A stretch of 64,000 nucleotides of DNA from Escherichia coli. GTDB taxonomy: Bacteria; Pseudomonadota; Gammaproteobacteria; Enterobacterales; Enterobacteriaceae. Below, piece by piece: positions 2,681 to 29,422 of this stretch; the first letter of the stretch is position 1; each line of letters opens with the position of its first letter. A program made the position numbers and the translations under genes. The DNA lies in the NCBI RefSeq assembly GCF_048403405.1, contig NZ_CP183129.1; one strand, written 5' to 3'. Below the pieces are notes generated by a model. The model ran no database searches and was not told where the DNA came from. It worked only from the letters and a program-made list of their open reading frames with translations.

Positions 2681-5600
2681 ATGACAGTAAAAATTTCTGG
2701 CGTGCTTAAAGATGGCACAGGAAAACCAGTACAGAACTGCACCATTGTGCTGAAGGCCAGACGAACCAGCAGCACGGTGGTGGTGAACACGGTGGCCTCT
2801 GAAAATCCGGATGAAGCCGGACGTTACAGCATGGATGTTGAGCATGGCCAGTACAGCGTCACCCTGCTGGTTGAAGGTTTTCCGCCTTCACATGCCGGGA
2901 CCATTACCGTCTATGAAGGTTCCAGACCAGGTACGCTGAATGATTTTCTCGGTGCCATGACGGAGGATGATGTCCGACCGGAGGCACTGCGCCGCTTTGA
3001 GCAGATGGTGGAAGAGGTGTCACGTAACGCCTCCGCGGTTGCACAGAATACGGCAGCCGCGAAAAAATCAGCCAGCGATGCCAGTGCATCAGCCAGCGAG
3101 GCGGCAACTCATGCAACCGATGCTGCAGCCTCAGCACGTGCCGCCAGCACGTCAGCCGGACAGGCCGCGTCGTCGGCTCAGTCAGCGTCTTCCAGCGCAG
3201 GAACGGCATCGACAAAGGCCCGTGAAGCAGCAAAAAGTGCTGCTGCTGCAGAGTCATCAAAAAGCGCGGCAGCTACCAGCGCCAGTGCCGCGAAAACGTC
3301 AGAAACGAATGCCGCAGCATCACAAAAATCGGCAGCCACTTCTGCATCCACAGCGACCATGAAGGCGTCAGAAGCTGCCACCTCGGCACGGGGTGCGGCG
3401 GCCTCAAAAGAGGCAGCGAAATCTTCAGAAACGAATGCATCATCAAGTGCCAGTAGTGCAGCTTCCTCGGCAACGGCGGCAGGAAATTCCGCGAAGGCGG
3501 CAAAAACGTCCGAGACGAACGCTAAGTCTTCTGAAACAGCAGCGGGACAGAGCGCCTCAGCTGCGGCAGGTTCAAAAACAGCGGCTGCATTATCTGCCAG
3601 TGCCGCGTCAACAAGTGCCGGGCAGGCCTCAGCCAGTGCCACCGCCGCCGGAAAATCGGCAGAAAGCGCCGCATCATCCGCTTCAACAGCCACAACGAAG
3701 GCTGGCAAAGCCACTGAGCAAGCCACTGCAGCAGCGAGGTCTGCTTCTGCAGCAAAAACCTCTGAAACAAATGCAAAGACTTCAGCAGACAATGCTGCTT
3801 CCTCTAAGGCGGCAGCCGCATCGTCAGCCAGTTCAGCGGCGTCATCGGCATCATCTGCGTCTGCTTCAAAAGATGAGGCGACCAGACAAGCGTCAGCAGC
3901 GAAAGGTAGTGCCACGACAGCAACAACGAAAGCATCAGAGGCGGCAGGCAGTGCGACGGCTGCATCTCAGAGCAAAGTTGCTGCTGAATCCGCGGCAACG
4001 CGCGCCGAGACAGCAGCAAAACGGGCAGAGGATATTGCATCCGCCGTGGCGCTGGAGGATGCGAGCACGACGAAAAAGGGGATAGTACAGCTCAGCAGTG
4101 CAACAAACAGCACCAGTGAAAAGCTGGCGGCAACGCCAAAGGCAGTTAAAACTGTTAAAGATAGTTCAGTTCAAAAAACTGGCGACACAATGGGAGGGCA
4201 GTTAAAAATCAGCACGATAAATGCTCTTCGAATATTCAACCAAGCCTTTGGCCTTATTTTTAGGCGTTCCGAAGATCATCTTCATCTTATTCCGACTAAT
4301 GAAGGGGAGGGGGAAAATGGAGACATCGGTTCATTAAGACCATTCTCTATAAACTTAAGATCAGGGTTGGTGTCCATCGGTAATGGACTAAAAGTTGGTG
4401 GTAGTGTTACTGGTAATTTGACCGGAAACGCAGATACTGCGACCAAGATCAAGACAGCACGTAAGATTGGGGGCGTGGCATTTGATGGATCGGCAGATAT
4501 CAACTTGCCTGGAGTCAACGCTACCGGTAATCAAAACACTACAGGTAATGCTGCGACCGCCACGAAACTTCAGGCAGCCAGAACGATTAACGGTGTGTCA
4601 TTTGATGGTAGTGCAAATATCACATTGACCCCTTCAAATATTGGGGCATTGGCATTAACTGGAGGGACTCTTTCAGGTGGTTTAACTGCTGCTGGTGAGG
4701 TTATTTCAAGGTCAGCAAATGGTCTGCGTATTGCCTATGGCAACTATGGATTCTTTATCCGAAATGATGGATCAAACACATATTTTATGTTGACAGATTC
4801 GGGTAACAGTCTTGGTACGCACAATAGCTTAAGGCCGTTTATAATTAGTAACCATACTGGCAATGTTACAATTGCAACTAAATTAAACGCGAGTGGTGGT
4901 ATCACTGGATCTTTATCGGGTAATGCAAGCACAGCAACCAAATTGCAAACTGCAAGGACAATTAACGGCGTAAAATTTGACGGCTCGGCAAATATTGAAG
5001 CGTTTCCGCCAGGTGTTCCGCTGCCGTGGCCATCAGATACACCACCTGCAGGTTATGCGATCATGCAGGGGCAGACGTTTGATAAGGCAGCATATCCGAA
5101 ACTGGCTATTGCCTATCCTTCAGGTGTTATTCCAGATATGCGCGGCTGGACAATCAAGGGCAAACCCGCCAGTGGCCGGGCCGTATTGTCTCAGGAACAG
5201 GACGGCATAAAATCGCACACCCACAGCGCCAGCGCATCCAGTACGGATTTGGGGACGAAAACCACATCGTCGTTTGATTACGGCACTAAATCCACGAATA
5301 ACACCGGGGCGCATACGCACAGTCTGAGTGGCTCTACGGGGTCTGCCGGTGTTCATACTCATGGTAATGGTATTCGTTGGCCAGGAGGCGGCGGTTCTGC
5401 GTTAGCATTTTATGATGGCGGTGGGTTCACTTATGTCCAGAATTCACAGTATCAAGTAAGCCCGGAGACTTCTTCCTATAGATCGTATTATCAACGTATT
5501 CAGACACAGTCAGCAGGTGCTCATACCCACTCGCTGTCTGGTACTGCAGCAAGTTCTGGCGCACATGCACATACTGTAGGTATTGGTGCGCATACGCACT

Positions 5601-5707
5601 CCGTTGCGATTGGTTCACATGGACACACCATCACCGTTAACGCTGCGGGTAACGCGGAAAACACCGTCAAAAACATCGCATTTAACTATATTGTGAGGCT
5701 TGCATAA
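2681..5707 (+). CDS. stf: Side tail fibre protein
   Basis: 1008 aa; N-terminus [22 protein letters not shown] and C-terminus ..[11 protein letters not shown] match lambda Stf as recalled; stop overlaps tfa start (TAATG). Confidence 0.9.
3040..4060. repeat. GC-rich Ala/Ser-rich repetitive coding region inside stf with recurring AAKTSETNA units
   Basis: Near-identical DNA blocks (..aaaacgtcagaaacgaatgc..) recur at ~3293, 3418, 3498, 3751. Confidence 0.7.
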
Positions 5708-6291
5708 TGGCATTCAGAATGAGTGAACAAGCACGGACCATAAAAATTTATAATCTGCTGGCCGGAACTAATGAATTTATTGGTGAAGGTGACGCATATA
5801 TTCCGCCTCATACAGGTCTGCCAGCAAACAGTACCGATATTGCACCACCAGATATTCCTGCTGGCTTTGTGGCTGTTTTCAACAGTGATGAGGCATCGTG
5901 GCATCTCGTTGAAGACCATCGGGGGAAAACGGTTTATGACGTAGCGTCAGGGGACGAGTTATTTATTTCTGAACTCGGTCCGTTACCGGAAAATGTTACC
6001 TGGTTATCGCCGGAAGGGGAGTTTCAGAAGTGGAACGGCACAGCCTGGGTGAAGGATACGGAAGCAGAAAAACTGTTCCGGATCCGGGAGGCGGAAGAAA
6101 CAAAAAACAACCTGATGCAGGTAGCCAGTGAGCATATTGCGCCGCTTCAGGATGCTGCAGATCTGGAAATTGCAACGGAGGAAGAAACCTCATTGCTGGA
6201 AGCCTGGAAAAAGTATCGGGTGTTGCTGAACCGTGTTGATACATCAACTGCACCTGATATTGAGTGGCCTACGAACCCTGTCAGGGAGTAA
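5707..6291 (+). CDS. tfa: Tail fibre assembly protein
   Basis: 194 aa; [38 protein letters not shown] matches lambda Tfa as recalled. Confidence 0.9.
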
Positions 6292-6342
6292 TCATTGGGA
6301 TTATGCCGCAGCACGTCTTAAGCAAGAACGTGCTGCGGTTGG
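6131..6342 (+). repeat. Direct repeat copy 1: tfa 3' end plus downstream 11-bp-stem palindrome
   Basis: About 210 bp repeated at 7182..7391; last ~95 bp nearly identical by eye. Confidence 0.85.
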
Positions 6343-6345
6343 ATG

Positions 6346-7014
6346 CTATTTTTTCCCTGAAGCGGAAAACATTACTACAGTACCTTGAACCTTGGTTTTA
6401 ACATTCTCGAAATGCTCTGAGAGTATATGTGTTAAGCCTTCTTCGGAATCTTTTGTGTTTGAAAAGATGCCTTTCTGATTGTAAATGCGCATCAGTTTTT
6501 GACCGAAGCTATTGTGCACAACTCCATCGCCAAGAATTGTGGCTCCGTATAGAGTTCCATCGTCAGTTAAGGCCTGCGCCGCATTGCGTATTACACAGCT
6601 TTTTGTAGATATATTTCCAGGCAGGCAGTGAAGAAGGTAAAACATGGAAATGGAATCAAATTGACCATGTAACGCCGCGGGATAAGGTTCAAAAACATCA
6701 TGGCTAATTTTATGTTTAATTTTTGATTCCCCAGCCCTTGTAGATGCCGCGTTCAGGCTAGCTTCGTTCAAATCCATTAAAGATATCAGACTACTCTCAG
6801 GTACGTGAGTAAGGTAAAACCCAGTTCCAACACCAATATCCAGATGGTTGTTACCTACATGTTCCAGAAAGTGTGGAAGAAGGTGTTCCTTTGTAGGACA
6901 TCCCCATGCAAGCCGATTTGATACTCCCAAAACCCACCAGTCATAAAGCTTTAGGGTAAGTGGTGTGTAAATTTTAGCCCCATCATCTGTGTTTTTTTTC
7001 ATTGATTTCACCAT
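6346..7014 (-). CDS. Class I SAM-dependent methyltransferase, substrate unknown (prophage cargo gene)
   Basis: Rossmann motif I LDIGVGTG and downstream acidic residue (LMDLNE); AT-rich by eye; a second ATG 4 codons in (MKKNT, end 7002) has the better SD (GGTGA). Confidence 0.7.
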   Translation of the reverse strand: MVKSMKKNTDDGAKIYTPLTLKLYDWWVLGVSNRLAWGCPTKEHLLPHFLEHVGNNHLDIGVGTGFYLTHVPESSLISLMDLNEASLNAASTRAGESKIKHKISHDVFEPYPAALHGQFDSISMFYLLHCLPGNISTKSCVIRNAAQALTDDGTLYGATILGDGVVHNSFGQKLMRIYNQKGIFSNTKDSEEGLTHILSEHFENVKTKVQGTVVMFSASGKK

Positions 7015-7070
7015 GTTATAGTTTTATTTGTGAATTAAATCAATTATGGCGATGAATTACAAGGGGTTAA

Positions 7071-7340
7071 ATGCTGCCGCAGCATAGCGATATTGAAATA
7101 GCCTGGTATGCTTCGATACAGCAGGAGCCGAATGGCTGGAAGACCGTCACCACACAGTTCTACATCCAGGAATTCAGTGAGTATATTGCGCCACTGCAGG
7201 ATGCTGTAGATCTGGAAATCGCAACGGAGGAAGAAAGATCGTTGCTGGAGGCATGGAATAAATATCGGGTATTGTTGAATCGTGTTGATACATCAACTGC
7301 ACCTGATATTGAGTGGCCTGCAAATCCTGTCAGGGAGTAA
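7071..7340 (+). pseudogene. tfa remnant: C-terminal ~55 codons of a tail fibre assembly gene fused to an unrelated N-terminus
   Basis: C-terminal translation ..[51 protein letters not shown] parallels the Tfa C-terminus. Confidence 0.55.
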
Positions 7341-7391
7341 TCATTGGGATTATGCCGCAGCACGTCTTAAGCAAGAACGTGCTGCGGTTGG
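7182..7391 (+). repeat. Direct repeat copy 2 (see 6131..6342)
   Basis: Same sequence block including the palindrome CCGCAGCACGT-N11-ACGTGCTGCGG. Confidence 0.85.
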
Positions 7392-7455
7392 CTGGTGAAC
7401 TTTCGATAGTGCGAGTATTGAATGATTTCCAGCCGTTACCGATTTTACGTGTTAA

Positions 7456-7704
7456 TTAGTGAACAAACCACTCGTCAGCAGACTCCCAGGTATCTTTCAG
7501 AGTTTCCTGAACAAAAGTTTTAGCTGAATCTTTATCGGCGGTGCGCGTAACAGAAAGGCCATCGTTGCTGGTAGCTTTTACGATCACCTCTACATCGTCA
7601 TAACGTTTACTGATGCGTCGGGTTAATTCTTCCTTTAACGCATCCACAGCACCGGTTGGCATTTTAGTCATTTTTTCTTTGGCTATGCAGATTTCAATAC
7701 GCAT
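7456..7704 (-). CDS. DinI-like protein (SOS-inducible, prophage-encoded)
   Basis: 82 aa; MRIE..IAK...GA(V/I)DAL..EL.RRI and C-terminal [13 protein letters not shown] match the DinI family. Confidence 0.85.
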
Positions 7705-7719
7705 AAAAGTCCCTCTACA

Positions 7720-7735
7720 CTGTGTTTGTATACAG
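7720..7735 (-). promoter_or_regulatory. LexA box (SOS operator) ahead of the dinI-like gene
   Basis: CTGT-N8-ACAG (cactgtgtttgtatacagta) 16 bp upstream of the start codon. Confidence 0.75.
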
Positions 7736-7747
7736 TATCATTTTTAA

Positions 7748-7763
7748 CTGTATGGATAAACAG
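7748..7763 (-). promoter_or_regulatory. Second LexA box in tandem
   Basis: CTGT-atggataa-ACAG. Confidence 0.65.
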
Positions 7764-7790
7764 TGTCAAGGGTGAAGGAAAGTGATTTTT

Positions 7791-7849
7791 TGGGGCATGC
7801 ATGGGGCAAAAATATTTGTTGTGGGGCATTTTGGGGCATGATTGGGACA
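7791..7849. repeat. Array of four perfect and one degenerate TGGGGCA direct repeats near the prophage-host junction
   Basis: TGGGGCA at 7791, 7802, 7822, 7832; TTGGGACA at 7842. Confidence 0.8.
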
Positions 7850-7951
7850 CTTTGTTACATATGAACTTTGCCGATTTTTATATGACATGGAAATACAACG
7901 CTTTGATTCTTCTAAATAAAAAACATGCTCTTGGGCGTTCTTTAGTGATTT

Positions 7952-8062
7952 TTAAAAATTCCGTATCACGCAGTTAAAGTGGCGGGCATACTCTTCAAGG
8001 CTGGTGATCCCCAACCGCACCCATTTAGGATGCGACCATTGCGGCAGACCGATGTAAATCAT
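7952..8062 (-). pseudogene. yecE: Truncated yecE (first ~32 codons retained, then disrupted by the prophage)
   Basis: Minus-strand translation [32 protein letters not shown] then diverges and stops; ATG overlaps yecD stop (ATGA). Confidence 0.6.
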
Positions 8063-8640
8063 AATGCGTTGAGGATCTCTTCCACACTGCGCACACGGGC
8101 GATGCGTGGGTAGATATGGTTGATGCTGTTATTGTGCTGCTCGGCGCTGGCGGCGCTGCAGGCGTCTTCGGCAATCACCAGATTAAAACCGAGTTCCCAG
8201 GCATTGCGGGCGGTGGATTCAACACCGATATTGGTCGAGATCCCACATAATACTATTGTATCGATACCCCGGCGGCGTAATTGCAACTCCAGATCCGTAC
8301 CGTAAAACGCACCCCATTGATGTTTGATGATTTCGATATCGCTGTCGGTTGCACCTAATGCAGCAGGATGTTGCCACCAGTTTTCGGGTAACACTTTAGC
8401 AGGGGAGGGGACATCAACCGGCTGTTTTAATGCTTCGGCATAATCGGCAGACCAGCCAACGCGCACCAGAAACACGGGCTGACCGCTCGCGCGAAATTTC
8501 GCCGCCAGCTTCCCGGCGCGATTAACCACCTCATCGGCAGTATGTGGACCTCCGGCAAAAGGTAAGATGCCTTCTTGTAAATCAATCACCACCAGCGCAG
8601 TGGTTTTAGCATTAAGTTCAAGCATGATGACTCCTGACAA
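8059..8640 (-). CDS. yecD: Isochorismatase-family hydrolase YecD
   Basis: 193-aa ORF (K-12 form starts at MLELNAK, 8625); position next to aspS. Confidence 0.85.
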
Positions 8641-29342: not shown

Positions 29343-29387
29343 GTGTCTTTATTGTTGATGTTGATTTCCCAACCGAGAAGAAATATA

Positions 29388-29403
29388 CTGTATAAAATCA
29401 CAG
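29388..29403 (+). promoter_or_regulatory. LexA box of yebG
   Basis: CTGT-ataaaatc-ACAG ~20 bp upstream of yebG. Confidence 0.75.
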
Positions 29404-29422
29404 TTATTATGAGAGGCTGCAA

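Follow-up and report, generated by a model that had tools for sequence, protein, structure and literature searches.

A DinI-family gene behind two LexA operators in a probable SOS-controlled cassette at the end of an Escherichia coli prophage

The window analyzed here, a 64,000-nucleotide (nt) stretch of Escherichia coli DNA (NCBI RefSeq assembly GCF_048403405.1, contig NZ_CP183129.1), carries on its minus strand a dinI-like gene that is preceded by two LexA boxes and followed by a structured 3' untranslated region (UTR) (Table 1). Positions 6300 to 8000 match E. coli chromosomes such as NZ_CP071002 at 100% identity; the annotation there reads, from left to right, lambda-type tail genes, a class I S-adenosylmethionine (SAM)-dependent methyltransferase, a partial tail-fiber-assembly gene, the DinI-like gene, and a 5' fragment of yecE, followed by yecD, aspS, nudB, yebC, and ruvC. 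In the window, the truncated yecE fragment occupies about 7958-8062, with yecD directly next, and the junction between prophage and yecE lies near 7958, ∼190 bp upstream of the dinI-like promoter. This puts the dinI-like gene at the right end of a lambdoid prophage that has yecE as its insertion site.

Table 1. Parts of the dinI-like locus, in order of transcription; positions refer to the window
Feature	Position	Strand	Basis or remark
-35 hexamer TTGACA	7764..7769	-	Promoter scan; homology with related loci starts just upstream
-10 region TAAAAAT (TAAAAA, 17-nt spacer; or AAAAAT, 18-nt spacer)	7740..7746	-	Conserved among aligned promoter variants
Distal LexA box CACTGTTTATCCATACAGTT, core 7748-7763	7746..7765	-	Heterology index 5.8; fills the -35/-10 spacer
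Proximal LexA box TACTGTATACAAACACAGTG, core 7720-7735	7718..7737	-	Heterology index 4.9; covers the predicted transcription start
dinI-like gene, 82 amino acids (aa), RefSeq WP_001217553.1, "DinI-like family protein"	7456..7704	-	Pfam, alignment, model
Stem-loop 1	7390..7448	-	Leader GUAAAAUC (7448-7441); stem GGCUGG (7434-7429) / CCAGCC (7395-7390)
Near-invariant 20-mer CAUUCAAUACUCGCACUAUC within the 33-nt loop of stem-loop 1	7424-7405	-	Conservation
Stem-loop 2, terminator-type hairpin, CCGCAGCACGU (7387-7377) / ACGUGCUGCGG (7365-7355)	7355..7387	-	Folding and covariation

The dinI-like open reading frame (ORF) starts with MRIE behind a GAGGG ribosome-binding site at 7715-7711. Its product matches the Pfam DinI family (PF06183) over the entire profile (positions 1-63 of 63; E = 1.1e-19; 70.9 bits, with a cut-off of 24.2), can be aligned over its full length with DinI of E. 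coli (1GHH/7YWA; E = 3.7e-13; 38 of 78 aligned residues identical), and belongs to the PHROGs class "RecA filament binding protein DinI." The only significant PDB matches of its AlphaFold model (predicted local distance difference test score [pLDDT], 78) are 7YWA_A and 1GHH, with template modeling (TM) scores of 0.76 to 0.79 and E values of about 1e-6. As modeled, the protein has the DinI fold, an alpha/beta domain with an acidic C-terminal helix, like that of RecA-bound DinI. The cryo-electron microscopy structure of DinI on RecA filaments, with contact residues that have all been tested by mutation, shows that L13, L21, W71, W77, and F78 form a pocket for RecA F203 and that E24, E69, and D76 face RecA K232, R243, and K245 (PMC9926225). 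The pocket residues map to M15, L23, W73, W79, and F80 of the window protein and the acidic contacts to E26, D71, and E78, so that all eight positions are kept or conservatively replaced; five of them, L23, E26, W73, W79, and F80, do not vary among 15 diverse family members that were aligned.

Two matches to CTGTNNNNNNNNACAG (CTGT-N8-ACAG), at 7720-7735 and 7748-7763, lie upstream of the gene. The whole window holds three such matches where 0.70 is expected, the third being the known yebG box at 29388. We scored LexA sites with a heterology-index matrix (Berg-von Hippel) built from 18 documented K-12 LexA boxes (PMC3009722, Table 4), for which the leave-one-out index has a median of 6.2 and a maximum of 12.6; both dinI-like boxes fall within this range (Table 1). 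The known yebG (29386-29405) and ruvA (13412-13431) LexA boxes, which also lie within the window, served as internal positive controls. When the matrix is built without these two, yebG scores 4.8 and ruvA 8.0, and the dinI-like boxes fall between them, at 5.1 (proximal) and 6.3 (distal), ranking second and third among 63,981 window positions; the next best position after these four scores 11.5. Ten shuffled windows contained no site scoring 8 or lower.

The boxes overlap the promoter elements. A promoter scan pairs TTGACA with AAAAAT across an 18-nt spacer, matching the consensus at 10 of 12 positions. The distal box begins with the final two bases of the -35 hexamer and ends on the first -10 base, and the proximal box starts 3 nt after the -10 element and covers the predicted start (about 7733) together with most of the ∼30-nt leader. 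A member of the LexA regulon is expected to have a 20-bp operator close to TACTGTATATATATACAGTA that overlaps the promoter or start; both boxes resemble this operator as closely as proven ones do, and both overlap the promoter or the start. These results bear out much of an earlier, sequence-only reading of the window, which had placed two CTGT-N8-ACAG operators directly upstream at coordinates that prove exact, had assigned the 82-aa protein to the DinI family (confirmed here by Pfam, full-length alignment, and the fold model), and had put the gene at a prophage end, where the identical chromosome indeed runs on into truncated yecE and yecD. It had also proposed matrix scoring as a check, poor scores for both boxes being the outcome that would count against it; both instead score like proven sites.

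The arrangement persists in diverged orthologous promoters, as expected of an operator of the LexA regulon. Four protein-seeded scans of IMG/VR yielded ∼200 related loci. Forty of their 45 distinct 72-nt upstream regions keep both boxes in place, over a range of protein identity from 100% to 60%, and the other 5, all more distant, retain a single box. Some two-box relatives have quite different box sequences (e.g., CACTGTATAAATAACCAGTT plus AACTGTATATTCAACCAGCA), and the box centers stay 50 to 52 nt (distal) and 22 to 25 nt (proximal) before the ATG. Column by column, conservation is 0.92 in the half-sites, 0.83 in the N8 spacers, and 0.77 elsewhere in the promoter. If the boxes were chance palindromes or relics in front of a constitutive gene, about 0.7 core matches per 64 kb should be the rule, comparable sites should turn up in shuffled windows, and the half-sites should not be the most conserved columns of diverged promoters. 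We give this explanation next to no credence, the shuffles and the window ranking having led us to reject chance as the source of the boxes. The same type of promoter is present in 701 of 5,426 complete E. coli genomes (13%), and the gene is annotated as dinI in many Shiga toxin (Stx)-converting and other lambdoid phages, including VT1-Sakai, BP-4795, YYZ-2008, and PPyecE_EH1910.

A second branch of the family behaves alike. Among 80 IMG/VR loci encoding MsgA-like proteins (L365 to L444), chosen by protein alone, all 78 that could be scored have a LexA box (index ≤9), mostly two in tandem, centered at about -49/-47 and -25 (e.g., TACTGTTTATATATACAGTA then TACTGACGTTATACACAGTA). The MsgA-like proteins are members of Pfam DinI and are 30% identical to the window protein.

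In the ∼200 related loci, similarity to the window sets in at about 7770-7774, immediately 5' of the -35 hexamer; on the 3' side, it ends at about 7350-7359 in 100 loci. Upstream of the hexamer, the relatives show at least five unrelated contexts, including the 3' end of the integrase gene in phage mEp460, whose GenBank record annotates this promoter. Phage morons, as described by Hendrix and co-workers, are genes with their own promoter and terminator that sit between conserved phage functions and whose flanks are unrelated between phages. The ∼420-bp cassette (7350-7773, minus strand) is such a self-contained prophage cargo: it shares with morons its own promoter and terminator hairpin, its insertion between phage functions, and its unrelated flanks, homology being lost at the -35 hexamer on one side and at the hairpin foot on the other. 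It differs in that the hairpin of the window copy lost its U tract at a recombination joint with a tail-fiber-assembly 3' end.

We therefore read the locus, with a probability of about 0.8, as an SOS-controlled prophage cassette: a DinI-family gene with a sigma-70 promoter and two LexA operators in front and, behind it, a structured 3' UTR with a hairpin at its end. What was observed directly is the sequence, the scores of the boxes and where they lie, their conservation, membership in the DinI family, the fold, and the limits of the cassette. Without DNA damage, both operators of a lysogen would be occupied by LexA dimers; LexA on the distal operator, within the -35/-10 spacer, would block binding of RNA polymerase, and LexA on the proximal operator would cover the start site. 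DNA damage would activate RecA, LexA would cleave itself, and the promoter would fire, making the gene SOS induced. The DinI-like protein would bind RecA, with E26, D71, and E78 facing RecA K232, R243, and K245, and would add to the dose of host DinI, stabilizing filaments and modulating the coprotease activity of RecA, perhaps to the benefit of phage or host.

Several points weigh against this reading or narrow it. The spacing between the boxes varies from 24 to 29 bp among relatives, showing no sign of phased cooperative binding. The hairpin of this copy lacks the U tract that a moron with its own terminator would be expected to have. The window protein scores 73 bits with the NCBI DinI equivalog model (NF007893), below the cut-off of 111 (K-12 DinI scores 178), and thus is a paralogue rather than an orthologue of chromosomal DinI, with an activity that may differ; "DinI-like" is the correct name for it. 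Data on expression, LexA binding, or RecA binding were not found for this E. coli clade in the literature searched, where queries for expression, chromatin immunoprecipitation, and LexA boxes turned up only annotations and association studies, and DinI-like genes are absent from the supplements of an enterohemorrhagic E. coli ciprofloxacin transcriptome. In Salmonella, prophage induction reporters were not significantly affected when the dinI homologue of Gifsy-1 or Gifsy-3 was removed by nonpolar deletion (PMC3121763).

The 3' UTR of the cassette (7355..7448, minus strand; 94 nt) is a two-hairpin element with a near-invariant loop, previously undescribed in the literature searched. From the stop codon, it is 68 nt to the terminal hairpin and 101 bases to its foot. 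In its 68-nt portion, this UTR is more conserved than the third codon positions of the coding sequence (e.g., 0.97 versus 0.80 in locus L181; 0.74 versus 0.38 in locus L197, where the protein is 72% identical), and the 127-nt 3' region folds with z = -4.3. Stem-loop 2, with a predicted energy of -23.9 kcal/mol, forms the 3' limit of the dinI module. Across 20 variants, 95% of its cells are paired and three pairs show compensatory change, with 24 to 56% pairing in slid controls; a T-run follows it in about half of the variants, including those with the methyltransferase next. In the window, the stem is followed by CATAATCCC, with no U tract, because the hairpin belongs to a 231-nt repeat made of a tail-fiber-assembly 3' end plus hairpin (see below). 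In 102 distinct copies of the element, 89% of the cells of both helices are paired and 14 of 18 pairs show compensatory change (for the helix of stem-loop 1, 90% and 5 of 7 pairs); none of 500 shuffles reached these values, slid controls gave 24 to 64%, and RNAalifold predicts the same two helices. Counted from the pair table, G.U cells number 108 and A.C cells 32, an excess that favors the gene strand as the strand that folds.

Rfam has no family on the dinI strand for this element, and 16-mers of the loop were not found in the literature searched. On the plus strand, two partial Rfam matches were seen. Of CssrB (Shigella small RNA B), only the final 32 positions are matched by the hairpin (7355-7386; 36 bits; gathering threshold, 76), and the 3' end of the tail-fiber-assembly fragment (7250-7297) matches the end of family IS009 (33 bits; gathering threshold, 117), which suggests that the small RNAs reported for this region are 3' ends of tail-fiber-assembly transcripts that stop at the same hairpin. 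A RefSeq "capsid protein" of 35 aa (WP_134274974.1; 7352-7459, plus strand) lies exactly over the element and is very probably a spurious gene call caused by the element's conservation.

The element is not confined to the window type of gene. An exact scan of IMG/VR with the 20-mer returned at least 120 loci. In these, the element lies 31 nt behind the stop codon of DinI-like genes or 50 nt behind that of MsgA-like DinI-family genes, or else it follows a remnant of one of these gene types or has no ORF ahead of it; invariance of the 20-mer in this sample follows from the search criterion. In the MsgA-like sample, which was selected by protein, the 20-mer is found in 56 of 80 loci (48 exact), at precisely 50 nt past the stop codon. 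Of 5,426 complete E. coli genomes, 5,319 have the element, with a median of two and up to eight copies. Outside E. coli, it was seen in at least six more enterobacterial genera (Citrobacter, Salmonella [S. arizonae], Kluyvera, Trabulsiella, Raoultella, and Pantoea). It is absent from the 3' regions of K-12 dinI and Gifsy-2 dinI, and no Klebsiella representative genome contained an exact copy of the 20-mer.

One copy lies in the K-12 spacer between ecpE and ykgJ (NC_000913.3, about 304,190-304,490), where a decayed dinI-like pseudogene (...NEWFNHE*) is followed by the element and hairpin directly upstream of ykgJ. This copy is an unannotated prophage-end remnant; other strains carry an intact prophage end at the same place (loci L014 and L258). 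The element was considered as an attachment site, since the K-12 copy resembled an empty one, and the idea was dropped given the pseudogene ahead of it. The window element lies ∼500 bp inside the prophage, and a DNA-level role is not favored, given the G.U bias.

Selection of the unit mainly or additionally for its RNA, with the 3' UTR (7355-7448) released as a small regulatory RNA or acting in cis on mRNA stability, is a reading to which we give well under even odds. It would account for a UTR more conserved than synonymous sites, for helices supported by pairing, compensatory change, and RNAalifold, for the G.U bias toward the gene strand, and for an element placed at a constant 31 or 50 nt past the stop codon of DinI-family genes sharing only 30% identity, across seven genera. 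On the other hand, an inverted repeat bound by protein could mimic covariation through symmetric change, the search itself accounts for the constant 20-mer of the larger sample, and the element is missing from 24 of the 80 MsgA-like loci. Nor does the window copy have the U tail typical of Hfq-dependent small RNAs.

A precedent is DinR, an Hfq-dependent small RNA cut by RNase E from the Klebsiella pneumoniae dinI mRNA's 3' end (PMC10907235). Shared with DinR are a LexA-controlled dinI transcript and, in its 3' part, conserved noncoding sequence before a terminator hairpin; nothing indicates that the two sequences are the same, and the window loop has no special complementarity to ftsZ. A conserved, structured 3' UTR ending in a terminator hairpin, as present here, is expected of such a small RNA, and so would be a stable processed fragment that binds Hfq or ProQ and has a defined target. 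No target emerged: predicted duplexes of the loop with ftsZ and with the start regions of its own gene and K-12 dinI were no better than background. Duplex prediction did not support ftsZ as a target, proposed by analogy with DinR and DicF. The loop has an 8-nt match (GUAUUGAA) to its own or the K-12 dinI start region that is not significant, the duplex energies lying at the 7.5th and 21st percentiles of 80 window start regions, with 5% of shuffled loops as good. We thus only tentatively suggest that the 3' UTR may be an undescribed SOS-induced regulatory RNA of prophage DinI-family cassettes, possibly released from the mRNA and acting in trans on host or phage transcripts; a role as an RNA of any kind, in trans or in cis, seems to us possible but rather doubtful. 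The near universality of the element in E. coli raises the question of an SOS-induced RNA and its partner.

Farther downstream on the minus strand lies the methyltransferase gene (6346..7014; 222 aa; class I SAM dependent), part of a cassette at 6346-7163. The enzyme has no solved relative and no NCBIfam match, and its PHROG, 2132, is of unknown function. Direct repeats of 231 nt (6115-6345 and 7164-7394; 90% identical), each containing a tail-fiber-assembly gene 3' end and the hairpin, bracket the cassette, and a truncated copy of the tail-fiber-assembly gene lies at 7071..7340. The methyltransferase cassette looks like cargo inserted through recombination between tail-fiber-assembly 3' ends.

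The shared minus strand of the dinI-like and methyltransferase genes could allow read-through in one SOS-controlled operon, but the 441-base gap between them is antisense to the tail-fiber-assembly fragment and, as an untranslated stretch, would be a likely Rho substrate. The dinI hairpin of the window copy has no U tract (CAUAAUCCC follows the stem), and a terminator scan of 6200-8100 gave no canonical terminator; yet the hairpin is stable and conserved, and in relatives where the methyltransferase follows dinI it carries UUUUUCUUUUU. The methyltransferase also has a promoter-like site of its own (7070..7043), has no LexA box scoring 12 or lower nearby, sits between the repeats, and occurs without dinI in phages ev243, 2G7b, the PhiR series (PhiR26_1), and others. 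A common operon is therefore improbable, and coregulation appears to be neither conserved nor likely, although the hairpin's missing U tract makes some weak read-through conceivable in this copy. Thus, of the sequence-only proposal that the tandem boxes place a prophage-borne RecA modulator, and potentially the downstream methyltransferase, under SOS control, the first part is supported by box scores, positions, conservation, RecA contacts, fold, and the Gifsy precedent, and the extension to the methyltransferase is not supported, given the hairpin, the gap, the repeat-bracketed cassette, and the occurrence of the gene without dinI. This evidence gives no grounds for listing the methyltransferase among SOS genes.

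Two further features of the prophage end were observed. A 48-bp segment (7791-7838, minus strand) that separates the dinI promoter from the yecE junction contains TGCCCCA four times; 11 copies occur in the 64-kb window as a whole, about the chance expectation, and loci L119 and L166, with a different upstream context, have similar repeats ahead of the promoter. These repeats are probably integrase arm-type binding sites of the attachment region. The tail-fiber protein encoded at 2681-5707 (plus strand; 1,008 aa) has a repetitive stretch of ∼300 residues rich in Ala, Ser, and Thr (AAxSAxxA...) and a C-terminal part, rich in His and in Gly/Ser, in which (S)GAH(T/A)H motifs recur.

By itself, the LexA/DinI finding adds little: Salmonella prophages are known to carry dinI homologues under LexA control, and annotation of the gene is routine; the differences from known systems, two operators and a tail-end, apparently monocistronic layout, are modest. 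What the cassette offers is a compact, mobile unit of E. coli lambdoid and Stx-type prophages with two full-strength operators, on a plan common to MsgA-like genes. It could supply many strains with extra, SOS-timed doses of a RecA modulator with possible effects on SOS dynamics, mutagenesis, and the induction of prophages or Stx during quinolone treatment.

The closest known systems are the dinI homologues of Gifsy-1, -2, and -3 in Salmonella, each preceded by a LexA box; replacing the Gifsy-2 box abolishes mitomycin-dependent induction of a prophage reporter, and tagged Gifsy-2 DinI accumulates upon mitomycin treatment (PMC3121763). Nalidixic acid induces the Gifsy dinI homologues 4.6- to 23-fold and msgA 3.4-fold (Merida-Floriano et al. 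2021; PMC8072944, Table 1). The window gene shares with them the prophage location, the DinI family, and a LexA box over the promoter, SOS induction being experimental for the Gifsy genes. Gifsy dinI, however, lies in the nin region behind replication genes, whereas the window gene lies between tail-fiber genes and the attachment site; each Gifsy gene has one box (that of Gifsy-2, TACTGTGTTTATATACAGTG, has an index of 1.9 on our matrix), whereas the window gene has two. The Gifsy-2 protein has 77 aa and is 45% identical to the window protein. Its gene is followed by STM1020.1n and an irsA homologue and lacks the conserved 3' UTR element, whereas the window gene is followed by the element and looks monocistronic.

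Gifsy dinI heads a LexA-regulated operon with a small antirepressor gene and irsA next, and the second half of Tum of phage 186 is DinI-like (PMC3121763). Our cassette might by these examples be a prophage induction switch, either a Gifsy-type operon or a Tum-like fused antirepressor, and PHROG 189 aligns the window protein to positions 71-149 of 151, so that its family includes longer proteins. The window protein itself, though, has 82 aa and a DinI domain only, unlike Tum-type proteins of 146 aa with an N-terminal antirepressor half; the module ends at the hairpin, 69 bases past the stop codon; and downstream there is no relative of Gifsy-2 STM1020.1n, nor is the genome position that of Gifsy dinI. 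A search for a downstream antirepressor found only two same-strand ORFs (7160..7363 and 7174..7323), both antisense to the tail-fiber-assembly fragment; the former has a counterpart at 6147..6314, antisense to the intact tail-fiber-assembly gene. We consider an induction switch very unlikely and retain the SOS-controlled cassette with a RecA modulator as its product.

Compared with E. coli DinI (b1061; 1GHH, 7YWA), the window protein has the same fold and length class, 49% identity, the same N-terminal MRIE, and a near-identical C-terminal helix (TWESADDWFV in E. coli), with all RecA-contact positions kept. The chromosomal gene is likewise LexA repressed, through a single box (ACCTGTATAAATAACCAGTA) where the window gene has two, and its short 3' UTR has its own GC hairpin and T-run without the conserved element. 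MsgA-like genes (MFVELVYDKRN...EEMFEEADMWLVSD) follow the same plan as the window cassette: a LexA-box promoter, a DinI-family ORF of ∼80 aa, the stem-loop element (56 of 80 loci), and a hairpin. The two types differ in their spacing, box centers being ∼24 bp apart in the MsgA-like type and 28 bp apart in the window type, with the element beginning 50 nt and 31 nt after the stop codon, respectively.

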